Shown: positions 22,787-47,483 of the stretch, one piece after another
How the letters are laid out: each line of letters begins with the position of its first letter
Position numbering within the stretch: the first letter of the stretch is position 1
Assembly: GCA_963806705.1 (NCBI GenBank)
Contig: CAWDZE010000014.1
Coordinates: 93,054 to 157,053, forward strand
Reading direction: 5' to 3'
Source: Vicinamibacteria bacterium
Lineage (GTDB): Bacteria > Acidobacteriota > Vicinamibacteria > Vicinamibacterales > JAENWD01
Length of the DNA: 64,000 bases
The notes under the pieces: model-generated
The model's input: the letters and a program-made list of their open reading frames with translations, nothing else
What the model was told of the DNA's origin: nothing
Databases searched by the model: none
Position numbers and translations under genes: made by a program

Positions 22787-23841
22787 ATGCGCTGGTCACT
22801 TTCCCGCCGTTCCTGGCTTCAGGCCGCCGGGCTCGGATCTCTCATCGGCACGGTCGGCGCGGTGCGTCGCATCGCCGGCCAGGCTGCCGATCCCTGCAGC
22901 GGTCAGGTGCTCGGACATGCCGGTCACGCGCTGGGCACCGTAGGCTCGGTTGATACGTCGCTGTTCGACCCGACGCGTACCTGCGGTCGTTCAACTTCTC
23001 GCACCTGCCTGACGATCAGCGAGCGCGGTTCTATCGCGAGACACCACGCCCCGATGGCTCGCTGCTGCGCGATACGAGATTTTCGCGGTCGATCGCGAGA
23101 TTGAGATCGCGCCGGGCGTGAAGTTCCCGGCCTGGGCCTACAACGGCCAGGTGCCGGGTCCCACGATTCGCGCGACGCACGGCGACCTGGTCCGCGTGCA
23201 CTTCGTCAACCAGGGCGCGCACCCGCACACGATTCACTTTCACGGCTGGCACCATCCGGACATGGACGGCTCGCTGCCCGCAGCACCAGGTGATGCCAGG
23301 CAAGGACTTCACTTACGAGTTCGAGGCGGACCCGTTCGGACTGCACCTGTACCACTGCCACGCGGTCCCGCTGAAGCGGCACATTCACAAAGGCCTCTAC
23401 GGCACGTTCATCGTCGATCCGAAGGGCGCGGACCAGACACCACGCGACGAGTTCGTGATGATGATGAACGCGTTCGACACGAACTTCGACAACGAGAACG
23501 AGATCTACTCGGTCAACACCGTCGCGCACTATCACATGCACCACCCGATCCGGGTGACCGTGGGTAAGCCGGTGCGGATCTACCTGGTGAACATCACCGA
23601 GTTCGATCTGATCAACAGCTTCCACGTGCACGGCATGTTCTTCACGGTGAACCGCACGGGCACTGCCTCGGCGACCAGCGAGCTCACCGATACGCTGACG
23701 CTCTGCCAGGGCGAACGCGCCATGCTCGAGACCACGTTCCGCTACGCGGGCGACTTCATGTTCCACGCGCATCAGAGCGAGTTTGCGGAACTCGGCTGGA
23801 TGGGATTCTTCCGCGCCTTGGAGGCTGGCCGTGACACCTGA
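22787..23841 (+). pseudogene. Tat-exported two-domain multicopper oxidase; three frame breaks as assembled
   Basis: MRWSLSRRSWLQAAGLG (twin-Arg). The frame path is mod2->mod1 at 22977, mod1->mod0 at 23072/73 and mod0->mod1 at 23277-80. Corrected, it reads ...DPTRYLRSFNF...LLREYEIFAVDREIEIAPGVKFPAWAYNGQVPGPT...HTIHFHGWH...HLYHCH...FHVHG...FMFHAHQ. Confidence 0.8.
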
Positions 23842-28317: not shown

Positions 28318-29521
28318 CTATACGACGCGCGAGCGTCTCAACCGCTCAATTTCAGCCTCGGTCAGCCCAAACTCTTTCAGGACCGCGTCGGTGTCCTCGC
28401 CCAGCACCGGCGGCGCCGCGCGCACGCCTCCAGGCGTTGCGGAAAGCTTGACCGGCACCCCGAGTACCCGTGATCTCGCCGGCGGTTGCGTGTACCAGGC
28501 GCTCGATCATGCCACGAGCGGCCAGTTGGGCATCGGCCAGTGTCTCGTCGACCGTACGGACTGGTCCACACGGCACGCCGGCCGCGACGAGGCGTGCCGT
28601 CCAGCCCGCGCGGGTATCTGCGGCCAGGGCCTGCCGGATCGACGGTTCTAACGCGTGATAGTCGTGCACGCGACCGGCATTGGTCGCAAAGCGTGCGTCG
28701 GCTTCGAGCGCAGCGAGTCCGGCCACCCGGCAGAAGCGCACCCACTGCTCGTCGTTGCCGACGGCAAGCACCAAAGGGCCGTCCGCGGTTTCAAACGTGT
28801 CGTATGGCGCAATCGACGGATGCCGATTGCCGAGGCGGCCGGGCGAGGCGCCCGTGGCAAAGACGATTCCTGCCTGATAGGTCAGCAACGCCGCCACCGA
28901 GTCGAGCATCGCGACGTCGACGTGCTGTCCGCGGCCTGTCTGGTGTCGAGACAGCAGAGCCAGCAGCACGCCTTGCGCCGCGAACATGCCCGTCACTATG
29001 TCGGCGACGGCGACGCCCAGCCGATAGGCGGGGCCACCGGCGGGTCCGGTGATGCTCATCAGCCCGCCCTCACCCTGCAGCACTGCGTCGTAACCAGGCT
29101 CGGACGCACGAGGCCCCGTGTGGCCGTAGCCGGACAGCGACGCGTAGATGAGCCGCGGATGGGCTTGGGCCAGTGTCGGGTAATCCAGCCCCTGGCGGGC
29201 GAGCGTCCCAGGACGGAAGTTCTCGACGAGCACATCCGCGCGGCCGACGAGCGTGTTGAGCACGGCGCGGCCGGCCGGCGCCTTGAAGTCGAGTGTGATG
29301 CTCTGCTTGTTCCTGTTGATGCTGAGGAAATAGCTGCTCTCACCGGCCAGAAACGGGGGACCCCATGAGCGAGTGTCGTCGCCGCGCCCCGGTTGCTCGA
29401 CCTTGATGACGCGCGCGCCCATGTCGCCGAGCAGCATGGTGCAGTACGGCCCGGACAGCACGCGGGTCAGGTCCAGCACGGTGACGCCTGAAAGCGGCCC
29501 GCCGGTCTTCTCAGCTACCAT
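28318..29521 (-). pseudogene. CaiB/BaiF family III CoA-transferase; one frame break at GTACCC 28464-28469 as assembled
   Basis: GVTVLDLTRVLSGPYCTMLLGDMGARVIKVE... Dropping one C restores the family C-terminus ...GEITVLGVPVKLSATPGGVRAAPPVLGEDTDAVLKEFGLTEAEIERLRRSRVV ending at 28318. Confidence 0.85.
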
Positions 29522-29526
29522 GGGAC

Positions 29527-29584
29527 GTCAATCGTAGCCGTCAATCGTACGTAATCGTCAATCGTCAGTCTGCAATCGTCAATG
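29527..29584. repeat. GTCAATC heptamer array filling the divergent intergenic spacer
   Basis: GTCAATC at 29527, 29540 and 29557, then GTCAGTC, TGCAATC, GTCAATG. The last unit contains ATG 29582. Confidence 0.75.
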
Positions 29585-29839
29585 ATCAGAGTTCTCCTGT
29601 ATACCGGCACCGGTTGACGCGCCTGCGACCTGGTGAAGGAGTTTCTTTCACGAGCAGAGGTGCCGTTTGTCGTGCGGGACGTCGATGAAGACGATGGGGC
29701 GTACGACGAGTTGTTGAGCCGGGGCTGGCGTGCGGTGCCGGTCACCGTCATCGGCGATCGCGCCATCAGGGGCTTCGACCCGGTGGCGCTTCGCGACGCG
29801 CTGCAGGCCGAGCGCGAGAACGGAAAGGAAGAATCCTGA
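29582..29839 (+). CDS. glutaredoxin/NrdH-like redoxin with in-frame TGA (29615-29617) at the first Cys of CxxC; candidate selenoprotein
   Basis: MIRVLLYTGTG-TGA-RACDLVKEFLSRAEVPFVVRDVDEDDGAYDELLSRGWRAVPVTVIGDRAIRGFDP... is all one frame. The track shows only the tail, 29633..29839. Confidence 0.6.
29630..29657 (+). promoter_or_regulatory. SECIS-like stem-loop downstream of the TGA
   Basis: Stem GUGAAGG (29633-39) / CUUUCAC (29645-51), loop AGUUU. The lower stem CUG/CAG is separated by a 3-nt bulge. The loop G-U lies 24-25 nt after the UGA. Confidence 0.45.
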
Positions 29840-30552
29840 TGCGTGCCACTGCGACGTCGGTTGCGGCTGTCCTGCTCGCTGCCTCTTCGGCATGGGCTCA
29901 GCCGCCTCAAGGCCCCGCGCCGCCAACCGTCGTGACCAACGGCCGGGCGATCGTCAAGCGCGCGCCCGACCGCGCTTTCGTGTCGCTCTCCACCGAGACC
30001 CGCGCATCCAAGCCTGACCAGGCACAAAAGGACAACGCCCGCGCGATGGAGAAGGTCAGAGCGGAGCTCGGCGACCAGAAGATCCCGGCCGAGGCGATTC
30101 GCACGACCAGTTTCAACCTGCGAGAGGACGTGGACTGGGTGAACGGCAAACGCGTGCCGCGCGGCTACGTGGTGAGCAACGTCATCGAGGTCCGCGTCGA
30201 CGCGCTCGACAGGCTCGGCGGGCTGCTCGACGAGGTCGTCCAGGCCGGCGCGACCTCGGTTGGCGGCATCCGGTTCGACCTCAAGGACCGCGATAACGCG
30301 GAGCGCGAGGCCTTGCGTCTGGCGGTGGCCGACGCGCGCGCGCGTGCCGAGGCGGCGGCATCCGGCGCCGGCGTCCGCATCGTGCGCGTGCAGACGATCG
30401 ACGAGCAGGGGTCCCCGGAGAGCCCGCGCCCGATACCGATGATGCGGATGGAAGCGGCGATGGCCGCCGATGCGCCGCAGACACCCGTCGCCGCCGGCGA
30501 AATCGAGATCCAGGCCAACGTCCGGCTCACCGCCATTGTCGAACCCCGCTGA
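29839..30552 (+). CDS. SIMPL/BP26 (DUF541) periplasmic protein
   Basis: Signal MRATATSVAAVLLAASSAWA. ...VVTNGRAIVKRAPDRAFVSLS..., ...AGEIEIQANVRLTA. The start overlaps the redoxin stop (TGATG). Confidence 0.75.
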   Translation: MRATATSVAAVLLAASSAWAQPPQGPAPPTVVTNGRAIVKRAPDRAFVSLSTETRASKPDQAQKDNARAMEKVRAELGDQKIPAEAIRTTSFNLREDVDWVNGKRVPRGYVVSNVIEVRVDALDRLGGLLDEVVQAGATSVGGIRFDLKDRDNAEREALRLAVADARARAEAAASGAGVRIVRVQTIDEQGSPESPRPIPMMRMEAAMAADAPQTPVAAGEIEIQANVRLTAIVEPR

Positions 30553-30567
30553 GCTACGTGCCAGGTA

Positions 30568-30625
30568 TACGGGGCCAGGCCCCGTTAAGGGCGTTACCAT
30601 GTCTTAACGGGGCCTGGCCCCCGTA
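30568..30625. repeat. 22/23-nt inverted repeat with nested GGGGCCWGGCCCC palindromes
   Basis: TACGGGGCCAGGCCCCGTTAAG (30568-89), a 13-nt loop, then CTTAACGGGGCCTGGCCCCCGTA (30603-25). No U-tract follows. Confidence 0.8.
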
Positions 30626-30636
30626 CGGAGTTACTC

Positions 30637-31368
30637 ATGACACGTCAGCTTCGGTCGGGCGCCCTCGCCCTCGCCGCTCTCTTCATCGCCGGGTACGCCG
30701 CGGCACAGACCCCGTCGGTCGACGAACTCGTTTCCATGAATCTTGCCGCGCGCGGCGGGGAAGCGAAGCTCAAGTCGCTCAACTCGATGAAATTGACCGG
30801 CAGCGTCAACGTGCAGGGCATGGACATGCCCGTTACGGTGCTGACGAAGCGCCCGAACAAGATGAAGCAGGAAATGACGATGCAGGGGCAAAAGCTCGTA
30901 CAGGCGTTCGACGGCGCGACCGTCTGGGGCATCAACCCGATGATGGGCAGCACCAGCCCTCGTGTCGTCGAGGGTCCGGCCGCCGACGCCCTGAAGACCC
31001 AGTCGCTCTTCGACGGCCCGCTCGTCGGCTACAAGGACCGCGGCGACACGCTCGAGGTCGTCGGTCCGGCCGATATCGAGGGCGCCAAGACCTGGAAGCT
31101 CAAGCTGACGCGCCAGGACGGCAAGTCGATGCACATCTTCATCGATGCGGCGACCGGTCTCGAGAAGCAGTGGACGGCCACCATGGACCAGAACGGCATG
31201 ACGATGGAGATCGACACTTTGATATCGGACTATCAACCCACCGATGGCGTGATGGTTGCGCGAAGCCTTCGCTCGCTCATGGGCGGCCAGCAGGTCGCGG
31301 CCGTCAAGTTCGCGACCGTCGAGTTCAACCTTCCGGTCGACGACAGCGAATTCGCGATGCCAAAATAG
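30637..31368 (+). CDS. LolA-fold outer-membrane lipoprotein-sorting-like protein
   Basis: Signal MTRQLRSGALALAALFIAGYAAA. ...LKSLNSMKLTGSVNVQGMDMPVTVLTKRPNKMKQE... is typical of this secreted family. Confidence 0.55.
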   Translation: MTRQLRSGALALAALFIAGYAAAQTPSVDELVSMNLAARGGEAKLKSLNSMKLTGSVNVQGMDMPVTVLTKRPNKMKQEMTMQGQKLVQAFDGATVWGINPMMGSTSPRVVEGPAADALKTQSLFDGPLVGYKDRGDTLEVVGPADIEGAKTWKLKLTRQDGKSMHIFIDAATGLEKQWTATMDQNGMTMEIDTLISDYQPTDGVMVARSLRSLMGGQQVAAVKFATVEFNLPVDDSEFAMPK

Positions 31369-35335: not shown

Positions 35336-35782
35336 TGGCGCGCGCACTCAGGCTCGCCGCCAGCGTGGCCGACGCGATTCGTGCGCACGGCCGCGAGACG
35401 TACCCGCACGAATGCTGCGGTGCGCTGCTCGGCGCCGACGGCGTCGTCGGCGCGACCGTTGCTCTTCCGAACACCACCGAAGAAGGGCCCAGGCGCCGCT
35501 TCCTCGTGCGTCCGGGCGACTACCAGCAGGCCGAGCGGGCCGCCACGGGCGCCGGTCGCGAGTTGCTCGGGTTCTACCACTCGCATCCCGACCATCCGGC
35601 CCGGCCATCGCAGTACCGACCTCGACCACGCCTGGCCGTGGTTCTCTTACGTCATCGTTTCTGTCATGGCCGGCGAGCCCGGCGACCTGCGCTCCTGGAC
35701 TCTCAGAGAAGATCGATCAGCGTTTGATGAAGAGTCGCTGACCGTTCAATCGTCAATCGTCAATCTTCAGTCGTCAATCTGA
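35335..35782 (+). pseudogene. JAMM/MPN+ (Mec+-like) metallopeptidase; 1-nt insertion after GTAC 35613-35616 as assembled
   Basis: HECCGALLG...LLGFYHSHPDHPARPSQY|DLD after dropping C 35617 (JAMM: E...HxHx7Sx2D). The tail ..TVQSSIVNLQSSI is encoded by the GTCAATC array. Confidence 0.8.
35744..35779. repeat. GTCAATC heptamer array (5 units) ending 5 nt before ATG 35785
   Basis: GTTCAATC GTCAATC GTCAATC TTCAGTC GTCAATC. Confidence 0.75.
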
Positions 35783-35784
35783 CC

Positions 35785-37236
35785 ATGGCCACCAAGATCA
35801 ATATCCCCACGCCCCTTCGGCCCTTCACCGGCAAGCAGGACGTCGTCGAAGTCGATGGCGCCACGGTCGGTGAGTTGCTCGGACACCTGACGTCGAGGCA
35901 CGAGGGGTTGAAGAAGCACCTCTATAACGACGAGGGCAAGCTCCGCAGCTTCGTCAACATCTACTTGAACGACGAAGACATCAGGTACCTCGATCGGGAG
36001 AAGACCGCGGTGAAGCCGGGCGACACCCTGAGCATCATCCCGTCGGTCGCCGGCGGCATCGGCGCGGCCGAGGCGCCGCCGGTGACGTTGAACGCCGACG
36101 AGATCAAGCGCTACAGCCGCCACCTGATCCTCCCTGAAGTGGGCATGGAAGGGCAGAAGAAGCTGAAGGCCGCGCGAGTGCTCTGCATCGGCGCGGGCGG
36201 CTTGGGCTCGCCCGTGGCGATGTATCTGGCGGCGGCGGGCGTCGGCACCATCGGCATCGTCGATTTCGACGTCGTCGATTTCAGCAACCTGCAGCGCCAG
36301 ATCCTGCACGGCACGCCCGACGTCGGGCGGCCGAAGCTCCAGTCGGCCTCCGACCGGCTGCAGGCGCTCAACCCGAACGTGAAGATCGAGCTGTACGAGA
36401 CGGCGCTGACATCGGAGAACGCGCTTCAGCTTTTCAAGGACTACGACGTCATCGTCGACGGCACCGACAACTTTCCGACGCGGTACCTGGTCAACGACGC
36501 GTGCGTGATCCTCGGCAAGCCGAACGCTTACGGCAGCATCTTCCGCTTCGAGGGCCAGGCATCCGTCTTTGGCACCAAGGAGGGGCCGTGCTATCGCTGC
36601 CTCTATCCGGAGCCGCCGCCGCCGGGGCTGGTGCCAAGCTGCGCCGAAGGCGGCGTCCTTGGCGTTCTGCCGGGGATCGTCGGCTGCATCCAGGCCAACG
36701 AGACGCTGAAGCTGATTCTCGGCGTCGGCGAGCCGCTGGTGGGCCGGTTCCTGGTGTTCGACGCGCTGCGGATGAAGTTCCGCGAGCTGAAACTGCGCAA
36801 GGATCCGGATTGCCCGGTGTGCGGCACTCACCCCACTGTCACCGCGCTCATCGACTACGAGCAGTTCTGCGGCGTGTCTCCGGCGCAGCAGACGGCGGCC
36901 GAGCCTGCCGGCGGCAGCGCGACCGAGATCACCGCGACGGACCTCAAGGCCCGCATGGATCGGGGCGAGGACGTGTTCGTGCTCGACGTCCGGGAGCCGC
37001 ACGAGTACGAGATCAACCGCATCCCCGGCTCGACGCTGATCCCGCTGGGCGACCTGGCCGAGCGATTCGGCGAGCTCGACGCCAACCGCGAGATCATCAC
37101 GCAGTGCAAGTCCGGCATGCGCAGCGCGCGGGCCGCAAGCTTGCTGCGCGAGCACGGGTTCAAGAACGTGAAGAACCTGAAGGGCGGCGTCCTCGCCTGG
37201 GTCGACCAGGTTGACCCGTCTCAGCCGAAATACTAA
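35785..37236 (+). CDS. fusion of a MoaD/ThiS/CysO-like ubiquitin-fold sulfur carrier (ends ..SVAGG), a MoeB/ThiF E1-like adenylyltransferase and a rhodanese (MoeZ-like)
   Basis: Residues 1-91 ...[12 protein letters not shown]...[16 protein letters not shown] (GG = 36052-36057), then linker [11 protein letters not shown], then [45 protein letters not shown], and rhodanese ..[10 protein letters not shown]. Confidence 0.85.
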
Positions 37237-37276
37237 GGTTCACGGGTTCACGGGTTCACAGGTTCACAGGTTCATG
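37237..37276. repeat. five tandem GGTTCACR octamers between the E1 fusion stop and the iscS start
   Basis: GGTTCACG x2, GGTTCACA x2, GGTTCATG (contains ATG 37274). Confidence 0.8.
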
Positions 37277-38494
37277 CCCCTGAAGTTCCCGATCTACATG
37301 GACTACCACGCCAGCACGCCGGTGGACCCGCGTGCGCTGGAGGCCATGCTGCCGTACTTCTCGGTGCATTTCGGCAATGCGGCAAGCCGCACGCACGCTT
37401 TCGGCTGGAAGGCCGACGATGCTGTGGAGGCGGCGCGGCGCCAGGTGGCGGCGCTCATCGGCGCGAGCGCAAAAGAGATCGTCTTCACCAGCGGCGCGAC
37501 CGAGTCGAACAACCTGGCGATCAAGGGGGTCGCCAGTGCGCTGCGGCCCAAGGGCAACCACATCATCACGCTGGAAACCGAGCACAAGGCCGTCCTCGAC
37601 AGCTGCAAGCACATGCAGAAGGACGGCTTCGTCGTCACGACGCTGGGCGTGCGCCCCGACGGCCTCGTGGATCTCGCCGCGCTGCGCGCCGCGATTTCCG
37701 ACAAGACGGTCCTCATCTCGGTGATGGCCGCCAACAACGAGATCGGGGTGCTGCAGCCAGTGCGGGAGATCGGGCTGATGGCACGGGACCGCGGCGTGGT
37801 GTTTCACTGCGACGCCGTGCAGGCGCTGGGCAAGGTGCCGTTTGACGTCAACGAGATCGCCGTCGATCTGGTCTCGATCACCGCGCACAAGATGTACGGG
37901 CCAAAGGGCGTGGGCGCGCTGTACGTGCGCAAGCAGAACCGGAAGCTCGAACTCGAGCCGCTCATCGACGGCGGCGGACACGAGCGCGGCTTGCGCGCGG
38001 GCACATTGAACGTCCCCGGCATCGTCGGCTTCGGCCGCGCCGCGCAGATTGCCAAGTCGGATCTCGAGAGCGAATCGCAACGCCTGCGGGAACTGCGCGA
38101 CCGGTTGCTCCAGCGGCTGCGGGCCCGCGTGCCTGACCTCCACATCAACGGCTCGCTCGAGCATCGCCTGCCCAACAACCTGAACGTGAGCTTCCCTGAC
38201 GTCGCGGGCGAAGCGTTGCTGGTCGGCATCGACGACATCTGCGTGTCGGCCGGGTCGGCCTGTTCGTCGGGCAGCGAAGAGCCGCCCTACGTGCTCAAGG
38301 CGCTTGGACTCGACCCCGATCTGGCCCGCGCTTCGATTCGCTTTGGCCTGGGCCGCTACACCTCGGAAGAAGAAGTGGACTACGCCGCCGGCAAGGTCGC
38401 CGATGTCGTCGAGCAGCTAAGGCAGATGACGGCGGAACGCAACCTGACCCAGCCTGACGCAACCAGGCAGAACCCGGCCGAACCTGTTCAATGA
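37274..38494 (+). CDS. iscS: cysteine desulfurase (IscS/NifS class I)
   Basis: [47 protein letters not shown] (PLP Lys), SAGSACSSG (active-site Cys loop). Confidence 0.9.
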
Positions 38495-39383: not shown

Positions 39384-40161
39384 CTACACCGCTCGCCCGA
39401 TGCAATCGTGCAGGCGCCGCACCCCTTCGGTCAACGAAGCCGGACCGGGCTGAAGGATGTAGACGGATTTGATCTCGTAGACGTGCCCGTGGCGCACGGC
39501 GTCAATCGCGTCCCATCCGGGCCGGCCGGTGATCCTCGCGCGCTTTACCGCCTTTCCACACCACGACGCGACGACGACCTCCGGATCGCGCCTGATCACC
39601 TCCGCGGGATCGACGATGCGGTCTTTCGCGAGCGCCGCGCCTGAAAGCTCCGGGAAGATGGGCGCGCCGCCGGCGATCTCGGCGAGCTCCTCGACCCACC
39701 GGATCCCTGAGATCAACGGGTCGTCCCATTCCTCGAAGTAGACGCGGGGTCGCCGCGGCCATGCCGCCGACGCCGCGCGAATCGACTCGAGGCCGAGTCG
39801 CAGTTGCTCCACCAGCTGCCGCGCGCGGTCTGCTCGGCCAACGATGCCGCCGACGACGAGAATCATCTGCAGGATCTCGTCCACCGACCGCTGGTTGAAC
39901 GTGAACACGGGATAGCCACGACGGACCAGCTCGGCGGCGATGTCGGCCTGCAGGTCGGAGAACGCGAAGATCAGAATCGGGCCGCAGGGCCTCGATCTTG
40001 TCGAAGTTGGCGTTGATGAAGGCCGACACGCGCGGCTTCTTCCGCGCCTCCGGCGGCCGGACCGTGTAACCCGAGACGCCCACCACGCGGTCGCCCTCGC
40101 CGAGCAGGTAGAGCGTCTCGGTGGTCTCTTCGGTGAGGCAGATGATGCGGGACGGGTACAT
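39384..40161 (-). pseudogene. BtuF/FhuD-fold binding protein without a signal peptide; GATC read as GAATC at 39974-39978 as assembled
   Basis: MYPSRIICLTEETTETLYLLGEGDRVVGVSGY...FDKIEALRPD|LIFAFSDLQADIAAELVRRGYPVFTFNQRS... after dropping A 39975. Confidence 0.7.
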
Positions 40162-40193
40162 CGAGGCTCACAATTGCAATGGCGCGGCCCGCG

Positions 40194-41036
40194 CTAGAAA
40201 GCCCCCGGATGCAGCGCCTTCGCGAGGCGGCGCGTCGCGGCAGCGACGCGGGGACCGGCCGTCACCAGGTCCGTGCCGGTCAGCACGACTACGCGGTTGG
40301 CACGCACGGCAGGCAGCGCCGGCAACGCCTGCCAGGCGGTCAGGTCGACGGGGCCGTCGGCCTCGACGTGCAGCTCGATGATCACCTCTGGCGCGACGGC
40401 GAGCAGTGTCTCGCTGCTGGCTTGCACGGACTCGCGCTTCTCGGCGGCGAAGACGTTCACCGCTCCCGCGACGTCGAGCATGTCGTGCAGGAATCCCACA
40501 CCGCCGCTGGCGTACAGGTTGCGAAGTGTTCCCGGCTCGCGGCCGAACACGAGCAGCGTTGCTGGCCGGCTGCGTCCGTTGACGCGCGCGCGGATGTCCG
40601 CCAGGTCGCGCTCGATCCCGCCTGCCACGTCATTGGCCCGCGCCGCGGTTCCCGTCCGATCGCCCAGCGCGCGGATCGTCGACGTCACTTCGGCCAACCC
40701 GCCGTGCTTGTACGAGAAGGCCGGAATCGCCGCCCGCGAAAGCTGTTGCTGCAGATCGTGCTGCGTGCCGTACACCACGACCAGGTCGGGCTGCAGGCCC
40801 AGAATGCGCTCGAGGTCGGGATCGAGCAGCGCGCCCACGCGCGGCAGCAGGTCGACTTCCGGAGGCTCGTGGTCGTAGCTGCTCACGGCGACCACGCGGG
40901 GCCCGGCGCCAATGGCATAGAGCATCTCGGTCGCCGCCGGCACGAGCGAGATGATGCGAGAGGGCAGCGTCTGTGCCGATGGAGCCCCCACGAGCCACAA
41001 GAGCCCGCACGCCGCCAGAATCAGCCGACGTGGCAT
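40194..41036 (-). CDS. periplasmic cobalamin/siderophore-binding protein (BtuF-like)
   Basis: Signal MPRRLILAACGLLWLVGAPSA. RIISLVPAATEMLYAIGAGPRVVAVS, LQPDLVVVY. Confidence 0.75.
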   Translation of the reverse strand: MPRRLILAACGLLWLVGAPSAQTLPSRIISLVPAATEMLYAIGAGPRVVAVSSYDHEPPEVDLLPRVGALLDPDLERILGLQPDLVVVYGTQHDLQQQLSRAAIPAFSYKHGGLAEVTSTIRALGDRTGTAARANDVAGGIERDLADIRARVNGRSRPATLLVFGREPGTLRNLYASGGVGFLHDMLDVAGAVNVFAAEKRESVQASSETLLAVAPEVIIELHVEADGPVDLTAWQALPALPAVRANRVVVLTGTDLVTAGPRVAAATRRLAKALHPGAF

Positions 41037-41074
41037 CGTGACGTTCGTGAGGTCCTTCGTGACCTTCGTGATTG
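41036..41074. repeat. four TCGTGA units at 9/12/9-nt spacing in the btuC-like/btuF-like spacer
   Basis: TCGTGACGT TCGTGAGGTCCT TCGTGACCT TCGTGATTG. Confidence 0.5.
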
Positions 41075-41088
41075 TGTATATGTCCACG

Positions 41089-42141
41089 TCAGGCACTCCG
41101 AATCAACAGCCACAGGAAGAACGGCCCCCCGATGAGCGCCGTGACGATGCCGACCGGCAACTCGATGGGCGCAATCACGGTGCGCGACACCAGGTCGCAG
41201 GCCACGAGAAACGCCGCGCCGAAGCCGAGCGAGGCGGGGACCACGAGCCGGTGATCGGCGCCGACGAGCAGCCGCACCAGGTGCGGGACGACGATGCCGA
41301 CAAAGCCGATGGGCCCTCCGATGGACACCGCGGCGCCCGTGGCAAGCGACGCGCTGAAAAACGCGAGGCGCTGCACCCGCAGCACGTCCACGCCCCGGCT
41401 GGCAGCGTGGTCGTCGCCAAGCGCCAGCACGTTCAGTGCCCGCGGCAACCACAGGAAAATGCCGCACGCCACAACCAGCATCGGCAGCGCCGCGATCAGT
41501 GGCTCGTAGCTGGCGACGTCCAAATCACCCAGCAGCCACCGCAACGTCTGCATCGCGCGCGTCATGTCGGCGAAGTACTGCACCAGCAGAATCAGCGCGG
41601 AGAGCAACGAGTTGAGCGTCACCCCGGCCAGAAGCAGCACCGTCGTCGAAAAGCCCCGATGACGGGCCGCCGCGAGCAGGTACACGACCACGACCGCGCC
41701 AACGGCGCCCAGGAAGCTGGCCAGCGGGACCGTGGCCCACGCCGCGGCCGCCAGCGCGCCGCCGAATGTCAGCACGAGCATCGCGCCGAGCGCGGCGCCG
41801 GCAGAGATGCCCAGCGTGAAGGGCGTCGCCAGCGGATTGCGGAGCAACGCTTGAAAGACGACACCTGCCGAAGCCAGCGCGCCGCCGACCAGCGCCGCCG
41901 CCAGCACGCGGGGCAGTCGCGCGATGAAGAAGACCTGGGCGTCGACGTTGGTGGCCCAGGGCTGCGACCAGTCGAAGGCGCGCGTGAGGCTGATCGAGGT
42001 GCTGCCGAGGAGCGGCGCAAGCACGCACGACGCGATCGCCACGGCGAACGCGCCGATGGACACCGCGACCACGCGGGCGCGAACGGAACGGATGGGGACG
42101 GGGTGGGCTGGTTGCAAACCAGCCCCTGCGCCGGTGGTCAT
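41089..42141 (-). CDS. FecCD/BtuC-family ABC permease
   Basis: About 350 aa, polytopic. ...GISAGAALGAMLV..., ...GPIGFVGIVVPHLVRLLVGADHR... ATGA overlap with the ATPase gene stop. Confidence 0.85.
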   Translation of the reverse strand: MTTGAGAGLQPAHPVPIRSVRARVVAVSIGAFAVAIASCVLAPLLGSTSISLTRAFDWSQPWATNVDAQVFFIARLPRVLAAALVGGALASAGVVFQALLRNPLATPFTLGISAGAALGAMLVLTFGGALAAAAWATVPLASFLGAVGAVVVVYLLAAARHRGFSTTVLLLAGVTLNSLLSALILLVQYFADMTRAMQTLRWLLGDLDVASYEPLIAALPMLVVACGIFLWLPRALNVLALGDDHAASRGVDVLRVQRLAFFSASLATGAAVSIGGPIGFVGIVVPHLVRLLVGADHRLVVPASLGFGAAFLVACDLVSRTVIAPIELPVGIVTALIGGPFFLWLLIRSA

Positions 42142-42944
42142 GGCCGACCCCTGCGCACCGGCACCACCACGAGATGGCCGGCTGCGTCGTGGAACCGCAC
42201 GTCGGCGTGGATGCCGTACAGCTGCGCGACGGCGTCGGGTGTCAGGACGTCGGAGGTGGCGCCGGCCGCCACGATCTCGCCGTCGCGCAGCAGCACGAGC
42301 GTTTCGCACACCGAGGCCGCCAGGTTGAGGTCGTGTGTCGACAGCACCAGGCCGATTCCGCGTTGCCGATGCAGCGCCCGGAGCAGCTCCGCGATCTCCA
42401 GCTGGTAGCCGGGATCGAGCGACGCCGTCGGCTCATCGAGCAAGAGCAGCCCGGCTTGCTGTGCCAGGGCCGACGCGATGACCACGCGCTGCTGCTCGCC
42501 GCCGCTCAGCGTCGAGAACAGCCGCGTCGCAAACGCGTCGGTGCCCGTCGCCGCCAAAGCCTCGTGCGCGATGGCGAGGTCGGCATGGCTTTCCACCTCG
42601 AACGCGCCCAGGTGCGGGTAACGGCCCATGAGCGCCAGTTCGAGCACGGTGTAGTCGAATGCCGGATGGGTGTTCTGCGGGACCATCGCGATCCGCCGGG
42701 CCACCGCGCGCCGCGGCATCTGCGAAAGCGCAGTGCCGTCGAGCGTCACCGATCCGCTGGTTGGCGCAAGCACGCCCGCGAGCAGCTTGAGCAGCGTGGT
42801 CTTTCCGGAACCATTTGGCCCGATGACACCGAGGCGGGCGCCTGAGGCGACGTCGAGCGAGACATCGCGAACCACGGGACGGCCCGGAGGCGACCAGGCC
42901 CGTGGCGCGTAGGCAAACGAGAGGTTACGGGCGGAGATCAACAC
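42138..42944 (-). CDS. ABC transporter ATP-binding protein (BtuD/FecE-like)
   Basis: GVIGPNGSGKTTLLKLLAG, LSGGEQQRVVIASAL, LLLLDEPTASLD. Confidence 0.9.
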   Translation of the reverse strand: MLISARNLSFAYAPRAWSPPGRPVVRDVSLDVASGARLGVIGPNGSGKTTLLKLLAGVLAPTSGSVTLDGTALSQMPRRAVARRIAMVPQNTHPAFDYTVLELALMGRYPHLGAFEVESHADLAIAHEALAATGTDAFATRLFSTLSGGEQQRVVIASALAQQAGLLLLDEPTASLDPGYQLEIAELLRALHRQRGIGLVLSTHDLNLAASVCETLVLLRDGEIVAAGATSDVLTPDAVAQLYGIHADVRFHDAAGHLVVVPVRRGRP

Positions 42945-45166
42945 GGAGGCCGACCATGCCCAGGCGGCCCGGTGCCGGGTAGCCGAAGGCTTCCTCGGTA
43001 CTGGCGATCGAGAAGGTTCAAGCCGCGGCCGAAGATCTCCACGTGTGGCGTGACGCGCCAGCTGGCGCCGGCATCGACCAACGTGAAGCCCGCGGCGGTG
43101 AACAGACCCCCGAAGGCGCCGAAGGACGGCTCGATGTCGAGCACCTCACCCCGGGCGCGAACCGTCGTGAAGGCGGAAAACGCCGATCGGGTCCATCCCA
43201 GGTCGACGGCACCCTGGTTGCGGGGACGGCGAATCAGCGGATCGCCCACCGTGAAGGGCGGCGGCGCGACGCCGGATTGGTCCACCGCGAGAATCTCCGT
43301 CGACATCCATGTGTAGGCGAGCCGCGCATGCACGCCGTGAGGTCCGCGCCAGACGCTTTCGAGCTCGAGCCCGCGCGCGCGCGCGTTGGAGATGTTGTCG
43401 GTGCGGTAGCGGCTGGCACCCGCAATCGAGGCGCCGACGGCGACGATCAGATCGTCGTATCGATTGAAGAAGGCCGTGGCCTCCACTGTCAGCTGAGGCA
43501 GCAGGACGTGGCTGACGCCGACGTCGGCGCTGCGGCTGCGTTCAGGTTCCAGGCTCGGGTTGTCGGTGAACGCGAGCTCGAAAGCGTCGGGCGGCCGGAT
43601 GCCAGTGCCAAAGCTGGCACGCACGGTTGTGCGCGCCACACCGCCGCCGTCCTGCCACGCGACCAGGCGTCCAGCCAGTCGCGGGTTCACCGAGGTCACC
43701 GACTCGTCGTCAAACGCCGGTCGCGGAGCGAAGTCGTTCGGGTCGCCCTCGAGCGCGTTGCGGCGGATGGCGTCGGCGCGCAGCCCGGCGCTGAAGCTGG
43801 CACGCGCGCCCAGATCCTGGCGGACCTCCGCGAAGCCGCCAAAGTTGCTGCGCTCGATCGGCACTTCCTGAAACCGCTCGCCGGTGATGTACGTGCTGCG
43901 CGCGCGCTCGCCCTGGCCTTCGACGCCTGCGGTGAGGCCCGTCGTCGGTGTCAGCACGACGTCGGTCTGCGTGCGGAACGTGACGCGGCGGGTCTCGAAG
44001 AACGAGTCGCCGAAGCCGCTGTGATACCGGTTGTCCAGATCGGCCACCGTGACCTGCCAGCGCTGCTGAACGCGGCCCGCGAGCAGCGATCCCCACGGCA
44101 GACGTCCGTGCACGCCAAGCTGCCGCTGCGTGTCTTCGCCGCGCGACACGCGATCGACCGCCGTGTAGGCGCCGATCGGGTTGCTGCCGTAGGGCCCGGG
44201 ATTGCCGCGCTCGGCGTCGATCCACCGGAAGTCCGCGCGCACTGCCGTCATCGCGCTCCTGGTCCACTCGAGGTGCCCCTGTGCCAGCGACTGCTCCCAG
44301 GCGTCGTTTGACACTGTCTCGCCGGTGGCTGGGGCGATGCCCGTGAAGCCGTCGCTCTGGTTCCGCTCGCCGCTGGCGCCAAACGACCACGTCCCGACAG
44401 TGCCGCGAGTCGCGCCGATCGCGCGCAGCGTCGCCTCTCCGCCGCCTTCGATCTGCCCCGAGACCGTCGGCCGGCCGCCCTGCTTCGTGGTCAGGTGCAC
44501 GACGCCGCCGATCGCGTCGGCGCCGAAGACCGCGCTTTGCGGGCCGCGGACGATCTCGACCTGGTCGACATCGCCGAGCGGCAGCAGGCTGAAGTCGAAG
44601 CCGCCGCCGAAGCTGTTGACGCGAATGCCGTCGACCATCACCAGCGTGTAGTCCGATTCGCCGCCGCGCGGGAAGACCGAGGTCAGCGCGCCACGGCCGC
44701 CGTTGCGGCCAACGGCAAAGCCGGGCGTCGTCCGCAGGGCGTCCGCGACGTTTTCCAGTTGCCGTCCCTCGAGCTCGTCGGAGGCCACCACCGTGGTCGA
44801 CGCGGGCGACTCAGAGCGGGGAAGTGGCACGGGAGCCGCGGAGACGACCACCGCTTCGGAGTATGGCGCGACGTGCAGCTGCAGTTCGAGCGGCGCCGTG
44901 CCGGCACCCGTGCGGACGGTCCGCGCCGGCGCGGCAAACCCGGGCGATTCGACCAGCACGCGGTAGCTCGCGTCGGCCAGGTCGACCACGGTGAATCGGC
45001 CCTCGGCATCGGTGGTCGTCGTGCGCACGCCCATGGGGCCATCGATCAGGACTGTAGCGCCGGGGACGGGCCGCCCGGACGGGTCGAGGACACGGCCGCT
45101 CAGCGATCCGGCATCAGCAGGCGGAGCAAGAGCAAGAACGAGGGCAAGGAAAATGGGCAGAGCCAT
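42925..45166 (-). pseudogene. TonB-dependent receptor with N-terminal CarboxypepD_reg domain (BtuB-like role); 1-nt insertion at GTAC 42998-43001 as assembled
   Basis: Signal MALPIFLALVLALAPPADA. SGRVLDPSGRPVPGATVLI. Plug ...DVDQVEIVRGPQSAVFGADAIGGVVHL. Dropping G 42997 restores ...NLLDRQYEEAFGYPAPGRLGMVGLRVDLRP ending at 42925. Confidence 0.85.
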
Positions 45167-45194
45167 CTTCACTCCTTTCGGCGTGCGATCGCGC

Positions 45195-45395
45195 CGAGGG
45201 AACGTGACGGCCCAGCGAACCAGGTCTCCTGACTTGCGGATCGTCGCGCAGCGCCCGCGCCTTCCCATGCCGTGCGGCACAGTGGCGGACCCCTGGGGTC
45301 GAGTAAAGGCGTGCGCTCCCCGTTTACAGTGGCGGCACCGTGTGGGTCTTCCACCCATCTTCGCTCAGTGCGCCGGGCAAGCGTCGGTTGTAACC
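45195..45395 (-). promoter_or_regulatory. cobalamin (B12) riboswitch
   Basis: The minus strand reads ...GGTGGAAGACCCACACGGTGCCGCCACTGTAA...CCGCCACTGTGCCGCACGGCATGGGAAGGC...GCAAGTCAGGAGACCTGG (B12 box, forward 45220-45237). It lies in the 5' leader of the TonB receptor. TATACT (reverse complement of 45400-45405) is a possible -10. Confidence 0.8.
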
Positions 45396-45642: not shown

Positions 45643-46146
45643 ATGAGCAAGTCTTCGACCGTCACCGTCCGCGAGACCCCCGTTGCGCCGGTGGCCACCG
45701 CGTCGGTCGGCAGTCTGACGATTCATGGCGAGACGTTCCTGATCGAAACCGACCAGCGCGTGGAGTTGGTGGACCTGACCAACCGGATCATGGACTTCGC
45801 CCGGAAGTTCAATATCCGCGAGGGTCTGGTCAGCCTCTGGTCCATGCACACGACGTGCGCCGTGTTCATCAACGAGTTCCAGACGGCGCTGCTGACCGAC
45901 ATCAAGGCGTTCCTCGAGAAGATGGTCGCGCGCGACGAGGAATGGCTGCACAACAACCCCGATCACTCCGACTGCGATCGCATGAACGCCGACGCGCACC
46001 TGCGCGCGCTGCTGCTGGGTCACAGCCTCACGCTCCAGATCAGCGGCGGGGAAGTGGTGCTGGGGCAGTGGCAGCGGATCCTGATGGCCGAACTCGACGG
46101 CCCGCGGGCACGGACGTTACGCATACAGATCTTCGGAATTTCCTGA
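45643..46146 (+). CDS. YjbQ/UPF0047 family protein (secondary thiamine-phosphate synthase-like)
   Basis: ...LVSLWSMHTTCAVFINE...DADAHLRALLLGHSLTLQISGGEVVLGQWQRI... ATG 45643 follows AGGAGA. Confidence 0.75.
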   Translation: MSKSSTVTVRETPVAPVATASVGSLTIHGETFLIETDQRVELVDLTNRIMDFARKFNIREGLVSLWSMHTTCAVFINEFQTALLTDIKAFLEKMVARDEEWLHNNPDHSDCDRMNADAHLRALLLGHSLTLQISGGEVVLGQWQRILMAELDGPRARTLRIQIFGIS

Positions 46147-46147
46147 C

Positions 46148-46217
46148 GTGCCTGGCGCTGCGTGCCGGGTGCCGGGTGCGGTGCTGAGTGCCGCGTGCTG
46201 AGTGCGGAGTGCGGAAC
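46148..46217. repeat. about ten 7-nt-periodic units (GTGCCGG GTGCCGG GTGCGGT GCTGAGT GCCGCGT GCTGAGT GCGGAGT GCGGAAC)
   Basis: Direct reading, immediately after the yjbQ-like stop and running into the 5' end of the next ORF. Confidence 0.6.
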
Positions 46218-47323: not shown

Positions 47324-47483
47324 GTTCACAGGTTCACGCGTTCACAGGTTCGCCGGTTCACGGTTCAGGTTCACCAGAGGCTCACAGGTTCAGAACCCAG
47401 TGAACCTGAACCCGTGAACCCGTGAACCGTGAACCCGTGCACCGTGAACCCGTGAACCCGTGAACCCGTGAACCCGTGAACCT
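47324..47483. repeat. inverted array of GGTTCACR / YGTGAACC octamers (about 8 + about 10 units) able to fold into a long imperfect hairpin
   Basis: Left arm 47324-47392 carries GTTCAC units; right arm 47401-47483 carries GTGAAC units. The apex is CAGGTTCA (47385-92), an 8-nt loop, then TGAACCTG (47401-08). Confidence 0.85.

Follow-up and report, generated by a model that had tools for sequence, protein, structure and literature searches.

Whether a TGA codon that interrupts a short glutaredoxin-like reading frame is a codon for selenocysteine (Sec), a true stop, or an error of sequencing is the question raised by a locus in a stretch of 64,000 nucleotides (nt) from a Vicinamibacteria bacterium (GenBank assembly GCA_963806705.1, contig CAWDZE010000014.1, positions 93,054 to 157,053; hereafter the window). 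An earlier reading of this sequence, made without database searches, had proposed a glutaredoxin-fold selenoprotein with a selenocysteine insertion sequence (SECIS) just 3' of the TGA. The frame starts on the forward strand at ATG 29582-29584, opens MIRVLLYTGTG, meets the in-frame TGA at codon 12 (29615-29617), and reads on as RACDLVKEFLSRAEVPF...AVPVTVIGDRAIRGFDPVALRDAL... to a second TGA at 29837-29839; the translation, MIRVLLYTGTG*RACDLVKEFLSRAEVPF...GFDPVALRDAL..., ends in ...NGKEES. Cys15, the second residue of the UxxC site, is encoded by TGC 29624-29626. On rechecking, all of these coordinates in the sequence-only reading were exact, and the 68-residue open reading frame (ORF) was, as it had stated, only the tail of the gene, the mechanical ORF list holding just the piece from GTG 29633. 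Overall, 29582-29839 is a real gene of 85 codons for a glutaredoxin-like protein, in which the codon of the catalytic Cys is replaced by a UGA that is very probably read as Sec.

The nature of the protein is clear from its domain. With U written as C, the 85-residue product matches the Pfam family Glutaredoxin (PF00462) with 52.3 bits (6.5e-14) against a gathering threshold of 22.9, and residues 4-61 align with profile positions 1-59 of 60, which places it in the family. Solved glutaredoxin (Grx) and NrdH structures are matched over residues 3-78 in a search of PDB sequences (best E = 9e-11); therefore, the glutaredoxin fold is already fixed. Residue 12 falls in the column of the first Cys of the CPHC or CVQC motif of these structures. 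The claim that the TGA lies exactly on the first Cys of a CxxC motif, to give a U-R-A-C site, is confirmed by both the structural alignment and the Pfam match.

Relatives of the gene were collected in two scans. The genome scan, in which each species was represented by a single genome, yielded 15 loci, almost all of them assigned by label to Vicinamibacteria, Vicinamibacterales or Acidobacteriota, and the metagenome scan gave 480 related stretches, 80 of which were fetched and compared. Gene copies were counted by the motif U/CxxC..VK[EAD][FL]L[ST], and TGA occupies codon 12 in all 95 motif-bearing copies of this layout, from independent genomes and metagenomes; three orthologues have TGC. The 14 complete genomic loci all show TGA followed by xxC at codon 12, at protein identities from 96% down to 50%. 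The same TGA is found in 80 of 80 fetched metagenome loci, a count that does not measure the ratio of Sec to Cys forms in nature, since the metagenome pattern, C[DE][LQR]VK[EA][FL]L[ST][RH], overlaps the peptide encoded by the SECIS and favours Sec forms.

Translation must run through the TGA, because the codons upstream of it are kept as protein, their third positions vary, and Cys15 is invariant. In 89 distinct genes, the seven codons before the UGA retain their amino acids (I-V-Y-x-G-S-x) with variable third positions, all 11 N-terminal codons are kept in frame with synonymous variation, and the Cys15 column consists of TGC (83) and TGT (6). Directly 3' of the UGA, C is found in 77 of 78 distinct sequences, although the codon to which it belongs may specify R, H, Q or L; no bacterial stop context is weaker than UGA-C. 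As is required of a selenoprotein gene, the in-frame UGA is conserved among orthologues, with coding conservation on either side.

The same comparison settles whether the TGA is an assembly or sequencing error for TGC or TGT, a caveat raised in the sequence-only reading. The assembly does look prone to insertions and deletions: 39 gap openings occur in 11.8 kilobases (kb) between the window and its sister genome L001 (CAWFRL01; 96.6% identical DNA), the C-terminus of the coenzyme A (CoA)-transferase next to the gene lies in another frame, and several Pfam matches are fragmentary. However, a miscall would need a substitution, whereas the trouble in this assembly consists of insertions and deletions; L001 has the same TGA and the same hairpin, and the identical TGA recurs in 94 further copies of the gene, obtained by unrelated projects on various sequencing platforms. 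With the same codon in independent assemblies, the caveat can be removed, and a miscall is effectively refuted, its probability being negligible.

Two of the collected loci are unusual in other ways. In L015, from a Vicinamibacterales genome bin, a short glutaredoxin at about 1990-2110 reads ...IIVYTGSS-QELIALGWRAVPVT... and is without the UxxC site and the hairpin, a loss of about 27 codons in all; this reflects either a deletion, perhaps in a pseudogene, or an error of assembly. The glutaredoxin locus of L011 (NZSH01000023.1), a marine bin labelled Woeseiaceae (Gammaproteobacteria), is nearly identical to that of L010 (CAJXDY010000038.1), labelled uncultured Acidobacteria, and the CoA-transferase neighbour is common to both, which points to either misbinning of a contig or recent transfer of the locus.

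Homologues with Cys in the UGA column, a further property of selenoprotein families, are also present. Three full-length Cys relatives, P0035 (CRPC), P0057 (CRAC) and P0066 (CRAC), are 52-64% identical to the window protein, and the UGA codon is TGC in L098, L099 and L100. An alignment with Cys homologues had been proposed as a check by the sequence-only reading, and in each of these relatives Cys stands in the expected column. The Cys forms are found in the neighbourhood of the Sec forms: a divergent CoA-transferase gene of about 80% identity lies upstream of L098 and L099, and a SIMPL gene directly follows the Cys form P0035. The hairpin region of the Cys-form genes reads GTGAAGGACTTCCTGACG or GTGAAGGAGCTGCTGACG, which are ordinary high-GC codons, and therefore the 3' arm of the hairpin is absent. 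In all three TGC genes the arm CTTTCAC has become CTGACG, and the predicted folds of L098 and L100 are without the hairpin. Therefore, the SECIS is present in the Sec forms and missing from the Cys forms, as judged from the three available Cys-form DNAs, which represent two distinct sequences.

The 7-base-pair hairpin of the sequence-only reading is found with the position and loop described there. It begins 16 nt past the UGA, after a 15-nt spacer, with 22 nt between the UGA and the loop; the loop G is 24 nt after the A of UGA, and the G and U of the loop are positions 27 and 28 when the U of UGA is counted as 1. The family consensus is GUGAA(A/G)G-AGUUK-CUUUCAC. When 78 distinct segments of 66 nt, starting from the UGA, were folded together with RNAalifold, a single helix was obtained, with columns 19-25 paired to 31-37 around a 5-nt loop and a consensus energy of -8.0 kcal/mol. 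Each of the 78 sequences forms all seven pairs; one stem pair alone varies, alternating between A-U and G-U.

Codon choice in the hairpin was compared with that in tabulated columns of the 89 distinct genes. Within the hairpin, Val is always GTG (89/89), whereas other Val columns use three to four codons, and Glu is always GAG (88/88), whereas other Glu columns use both codons. Leu is CTT in 89/89 genes in the hairpin against 1/89 at Leu codon +32, and Ser is TCA in 89/89 against 1/76 at Ser codon -2. Phe is TTT in 50/51, and the other two Phe columns have TTC in 77/87 and 65/67. Every degenerate site outside the hairpin within the 66 nt varies. The contrast indicates that in the TGA forms the hairpin is under selection at the nucleotide (RNA) level.

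Not every part of the proposed structure is retained. The extension of the stem by CUG/CAG is present in the window and is not conserved in the family: a lower stem of columns 16-18 with 41-43 pairs in 61% of cells, was dropped by RNAalifold, and was rejected here. Bacterial SECIS elements are sought by criteria of the bSECISearch type, with about 16-37 nt between UGA and loop, 3-14 nt in the loop, 4 or more base pairs in the upper stem, and a G in the first two loop positions. The remaining hairpin, with its 7-base-pair stem, 5-nt loop A-G-U-U-K and 22 nt from UGA to loop, fits these criteria. Like the SECIS of E. coli fdhF, it lies in the coding sequence directly 3' of the UGA and has G-U in its apical loop; in E. 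coli and Moorella, SelB makes its contact with an apical G-U of this kind. Unlike the fdhF element, it has its loop G/U at +27/+28 instead of +23/+24, a 5-nt loop, no bulged U in the upper stem, and no conserved lower stem.

A closer counterpart is found among clostridial glutaredoxins. The best PDB match of the window protein is 7c10 (41% identity over 63 residues, E = 9e-11); the entries 7C10, 7C12 and 7C13 are Grx1 of Clostridium (Alkaliphilus) oremlandii OhILAs in a Sec-to-Cys variant. This Grx1 belongs to the selenoprotein family 'Glutaredoxin (Grx), PF00462, UxxC', reportedly recognised by Zhang and Gladyshev and, in 2011, by Kim and co-workers. The 7c10 structure paper describes C. oremlandii cGrx1 as a native selenoprotein whose site is U(or C)PXC, with Sec changed to Cys for crystallography; a 2026 review lists Grx (PF00462, UxxC) among the prokaryotic selenoprotein families and cites the experimental work of Kim et al. 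2011. In L101-L105, which are about 80% identical to cGrx1, the DNA reads ...SNT-TGA CCA CAY TG. ... ACA GTGAAAGAGTATCTTTCAG, that is, UGA, 15 nt, and then GTG-AAA-GAG-TAT-CTT-TCA-G, which encodes VKEYLS. The hairpin, UGAAAG(A)-GUA-(U)CUUUCA, has the same offset as in the window, with G27/U28 in the loop.

Therefore, the conclusion that the window gene shares both its protein fold and its apparent recoding element with a known Sec-glutaredoxin is well supported by the 7c10 match together with the hairpin of L101-L105. The window protein and C. oremlandii Grx1 have the same fold and length, with U at the same position of the UxxC alignment, and in both families the peptide V-K-E-F/Y-L-S stands at U+6 to U+11. 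Their hairpins are nearly the same (GUGAAAG AGUWU CUUUCA), at equal distance from the UGA with G/U at 27/28, and gene callers truncate both proteins alike. They differ in the active site, which is U-R-A-C (or R-S-C, H-S-C) in the window family and U-P-H-C in the clostridial one, and in the stem, which has one extra G-C pair at its base in the window. The host of the window gene belongs to a high-GC, mostly soil acidobacterial lineage, whereas the clostridial host is an anaerobic Firmicute; a divergent CoA-transferase gene stands here in place of the Crp/DUF1858/FTHFS genes of the clostridial loci, and no selenoprotein MsrA partner is seen near the window gene. With U at the first UxxC position of a PF00462 protein and a SECIS homologous to that of known members, the gene falls within the Sec-Grx family.

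Assignment to narrower families is less straightforward. The sequence-only reading called the protein NrdH-like, and the resemblance is real: NrdH-redoxins (TIGR02194; E. coli 1H75, C. ammoniagenes 1R7H) are small proteins of similar length with PDB E-values of about 1e-5, and share the C-terminal region R/SGF-D/RP after the cis-Pro strand. Membership in NrdH, however, was rejected, with 47.5 bits against a cutoff of 85.75 (TIGR02194) and 29.7 against 131 (PRK10329), and the window protein has URAC and IRGFDP in place of the CVQC and WSGFRP motifs. No ribonucleotide reductase gene occurs among the annotated genes at 18.8-47.3 kb of the window. We know of no Sec form of NrdH, and a literature search for selenoprotein plus NrdH returned nothing relevant. 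The best NCBIfam match is the YruB family (TIGR02196; 9.8e-15, residues 4-74 on profile positions 2-73 of 74), a name that sources give to several Cys relatives of clostridial Grx1. Since the score, 54.8 bits, is under the curated cutoff of 88.55, the window protein appears to be a sister clade of YruB and not a member. The UXX-star selenoproteins (NF041212, NF041114, NF041211, NF047338) also have a distant glutaredoxin fold; this name presumably refers to a C-terminal U-x-x-stop motif. The window protein scores 19-40 bits against their cutoffs of 66-100, has its Sec at residue 12 of 85, and was not placed among them; in the 2026 review, UXX-star family 1 has UxxT with two Sec and family 2 has GxGU, neither of which is an N-terminal UxxC.

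Public databases present the gene differently. Of about 120 relatives listed in the protein search, almost all are N-terminally truncated, most to 68 residues, starting V/MKEFLS; the identical truncation recurs in many independent assemblies, public gene calls keeping the 68-residue tail from GTG 29633. The clostridial Sec-Grx1 relatives L101-L105 are likewise stored as fragments of 57-59 residues that start at the hairpin GTG, and therefore the truncation artefact spans the whole Sec-Grx family. It might be argued from these calls, which give the 68-residue ORF in about 100 clusters, that the TGA is a true stop, that the product is the tail from GTG 29633 or, in a pseudogene, nothing, and that the hairpin is a regulatory or reinitiation element; in principle, the GTG at the hairpin base is a possible start codon. 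The tail, however, lacks beta-strand 1 and the whole active site when aligned with 7c10, 1r7h and 1h75. The 11 in-frame codons upstream are kept as protein, with synonymous sites varying, down to 50% identity, the Cys orthologues read straight across the same region, and a pseudogene would not hold one specific stop codon in 95 lineages. The probability of a true stop is accordingly considered very slight.

Several results weigh against a Sec-glutaredoxin, or fail to support it where support might be looked for. On the RNA side, the folding of the single window sequence is not exceptional (z-scores of -0.97 and -0.66 against shuffles), and since the hairpin alone folds no better than shuffles, its significance rests on the relatives. 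No compensatory double changes are seen in the stem among the 78 sequences, so that the structure is supported by conservation and not by covariation; because the stem is invariant but for one A-U/G-U switch, covariation statistics are uninformative. No Rfam family covers the hairpin, and a permissive scan of 29500-29900 gave chance matches only (E >= 0.6). On the side of the machinery, selA, selB and selD were not found by tblastn with the E. coli proteins in the 64-kb window and about 619 kb of related loci, and a search of the window and loci L001-L015 with ARAGORN was negative for every type of tRNA; these searches covered syntenic stretches of 10-64 kb per genome and are uninformative, not evidence of absence. 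A literature search gave no paper reporting selenoproteins in Vicinamibacteria or Luteitalea. Acidobacteria as a group were listed as Sec users, with three families and four selenoproteins, by Zhang et al. 2006, and the acidobacterium Occallatibacter riparius is among the Sec users in deep-Sep 2025. When the window was searched by codon usage, a crude method, for further TGA-interrupted frames, no convincing second candidate for a selenoprotein emerged, and the method missed even the gene under study because the part upstream of the TGA is so short.

The UGA might instead be decoded as another amino acid, either as Cys by a tRNA-Cys with a UCA anticodon acting with a SelB-like factor, or as Trp by near-cognate read-through to which the hairpin and the weak UGA-C context would contribute. 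A tRNA-Cys of this kind, mimicking tRNA-Sec, has been proposed for some deltaproteobacteria; SelC*-type tRNA-Cys opal suppressors, and unusual tRNA-Sec-like tRNAs of Acidobacteria, have been described (PMC5389517), and the C that follows UGA in 77 of 78 sequences would also suit read-through. In the same study, however, the selC* tRNAs came from Firmicutes, Thermodesulfobacteria, Nitrospirae and Proteobacteria, not from Acidobacteria, and genomes with selC* also had a complete Sec apparatus (PMC5389517). Moreover, a Grx reported as a native selenoprotein has a homologous hairpin. Trp at the catalytic position would abolish the activity of a CxxC redox protein, whereas the remaining residues of the site show purifying selection. 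Decoding other than as Sec is therefore judged very unlikely. The best explanation remains a Sec-glutaredoxin gene with SECIS-directed recoding of UGA and Grx1-like function, which is held with high confidence; the proposal of the sequence-only reading stands at its core, on the UGA in 95 of 95 copies, the Cys orthologues, the RNA-selected hairpin and the homologous clostridial hairpin.

The expression and function of such a Sec-glutaredoxin can be potentially described as follows. While the ribosome reads the mRNA, the hairpin 16-34 nt downstream of UGA codon 12 would act as a SECIS. As in other bacteria that insert Sec, SelB in complex with GTP and Sec-tRNA(Sec) would bind the apical G-U loop as the ribosome nears, and would deliver Sec to the A site at codon 12 in competition with release factor 2. 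The weak stop signal UGA-C should favour recoding. Lying inside the frame, the hairpin also encodes V-K-E-F/L-L-S, so that peptide and codons are both frozen. The product would be an 85-residue thiol/selenol-disulfide oxidoreductase with Sec12 as the attacking residue. By analogy with cGrx1 and other UxxC oxidoreductases, Sec12 may attack a substrate disulfide or sulfenate, and Cys15 may resolve the intermediate as a selenenylsulfide. An external reductant would then regenerate the enzyme, the candidates being thioredoxin reductase, as for NrdH, or glutathione. Thus, the mature protein most likely works like C. oremlandii Grx1.

The positions of the gene, its recoding features, and its two immediate neighbours are given in Table 1.

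Table 1. Features of the predicted Sec-glutaredoxin locus, in window positions.
Feature	Position	Strand	Remarks
Predicted Sec-glutaredoxin gene	29582..29839	+	85 codons plus stop; glutaredoxin-fold oxidoreductase, U12-R-A-C15; from translation and Pfam PF00462
Predicted Sec codon 12, UGA followed by C (UGA-C)	29615..29617	+	conserved across relatives
Resolving Cys15 of UxxC (predicted role)	29624..29626	+	invariant Cys; in one alignment column with the second Cys of the CPHC motif of C. oremlandii Grx1
Putative SECIS hairpin	29633..29651	+	5' arm GUGAAGG 29633-29639, loop AGUUU 29640-29644, 3' arm CUUUCAC 29645-29651
Family III CoA-transferase gene	28352..29521	-	divergent; Pfam CoA_transf_3 1.9e-127
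SIMPL/DUF541 gene	29839..30552	+	ATG 29839-29841 overlaps the glutaredoxin stop (TGATG); Pfam SIMPL 3.6e-53

The CoA-transferase gene is the only neighbour conserved family-wide, being immediately upstream and divergent in most loci, including the Cys forms L098 and L099; it is context and no part of the recoding device. In L001, L018, L019, L042, L066 and the P0035 contig, which has a Cys form, the SIMPL gene adjoins the glutaredoxin gene. In most other relatives that have SIMPL in the stored flank it lies about 3 kb downstream of the glutaredoxin gene, and in L027, the one locus for which the intervening ORFs are listed, convergent genes stand between the two. The translational coupling to SIMPL that had been suggested thus holds for the TGATG overlap of the window and its close relatives, but not as a general trait of the family. 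Other neighbours in the window are a DUF620-like gene and a MutS-related gene.

In many relatives (L027, L067, L093 and others) the start codons of the divergent CoA-transferase and glutaredoxin genes are 9 nt apart, CAT-AATGGACAG-ATG, and therefore the promoter of each gene must sit within the coding sequence of the other. In the window the gap is 60 nt and is filled with heptamer repeats, and a promoter scan of 29300-30700 found no sigma-70-like site. Tandem repeats with a period of 7-8 nt occur in the gaps 29526-29583, 35746-35779, 37236-37274, 46143-46212 and 47324-47482. The unit TCAATCG / CGTCAAT abuts two starts, the ATG of the Sec-glutaredoxin gene at 29582 and that of a ThiS-ThiF-rhodanese fusion at 35785; all five window matches to TCAATCGT lie within these two start-codon arrays, whereas shuffles average 1.4. 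Both arrays are kept in L001, and other 7-8 nt repeats (GGTGATTT / AAATCACC) occupy the homologous CoA-transferase/glutaredoxin gap in L004 and L009. These start-codon repeats may serve as a binding site for a common regulator, or as a leader that lacks a Shine-Dalgarno sequence. At 35785-38494 (+) the gene after the ThiS-ThiF-rhodanese fusion encodes a class-V aminotransferase of the cysteine desulfurase / selenocysteine lyase type; located 6 kb from the Sec-glutaredoxin gene, the two form a sulfur-relay or, conceivably, a selenium-relay pair.

Further features of the window concern its assembly and other genes. The typical CoA-transferase C-terminus in another frame (ORF 28318-28458; region 28318-29521, -) and multicopper-oxidase fragments (23290-23841) have the look of an assembly prone to insertions and deletions. 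The same is true of 39384-41096, where two adjacent ORFs each match the periplasmic binding protein family, the shorter being a C-terminal fragment only. A cobalamin riboswitch at 45202-45387 (-; Rfam RF00174, 65.7 bits) is the only Rfam match above the gathering threshold in the window. It overlaps the 5' end of a TonB-dependent receptor ORF (42938-45358, -), and therefore the receptor probably starts further downstream than called. After the receptor come genes of the FecCD permease, ABC ATPase and periplasmic binding protein types (39384-45358, -), and together with the riboswitch the group looks like a B12 uptake operon.

Two evolutionary schemes can be considered for the gene in Vicinamibacteria. 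In one, the lineage keeps a UGA-plus-hairpin gene without canonical selA/selB/selC, for example by means of a SelB-like factor and an opal-suppressor tRNA charged with Cys or otherwise, belonging to the unusual tRNA-Sec-like tRNAs described for Acidobacteria. This would be a far more interesting finding, if selABCD were absent from the genomes that carry the gene, and it is judged quite improbable. In the other, which is more likely, the gene would mark a large, previously undescribed Sec-glutaredoxin clade in mostly aerobic soil bacteria, systematically mis-annotated as 68-residue proteins, and its SECIS would have been inherited or transferred almost unchanged between Clostridia and Acidobacteria.

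Overall, the gene is well supported as a member of a selenoprotein family that is already known, in which it represents a new acidobacterial clade, abundant and mostly from soil. Knowledge of the mechanism of Sec insertion is unchanged by the finding, which a specialist may regard as tidy and not as surprising. The dual coding is of interest, as the same 19 bases appear to form a putative SelB-binding hairpin and encode the peptide V-K-E-F-L-S, freezing rare codons in a 67% GC genome while the sequences elsewhere have diverged to 50% identity. Since public databases hold the protein almost solely as an inactive-looking 68-residue fragment, the finding matters for annotation and for estimates of the selenium demand of soil microbes. 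It would place the use of Sec in Vicinamibacteria, an abundant soil lineage for which a single metagenome scan gave hundreds of related stretches.

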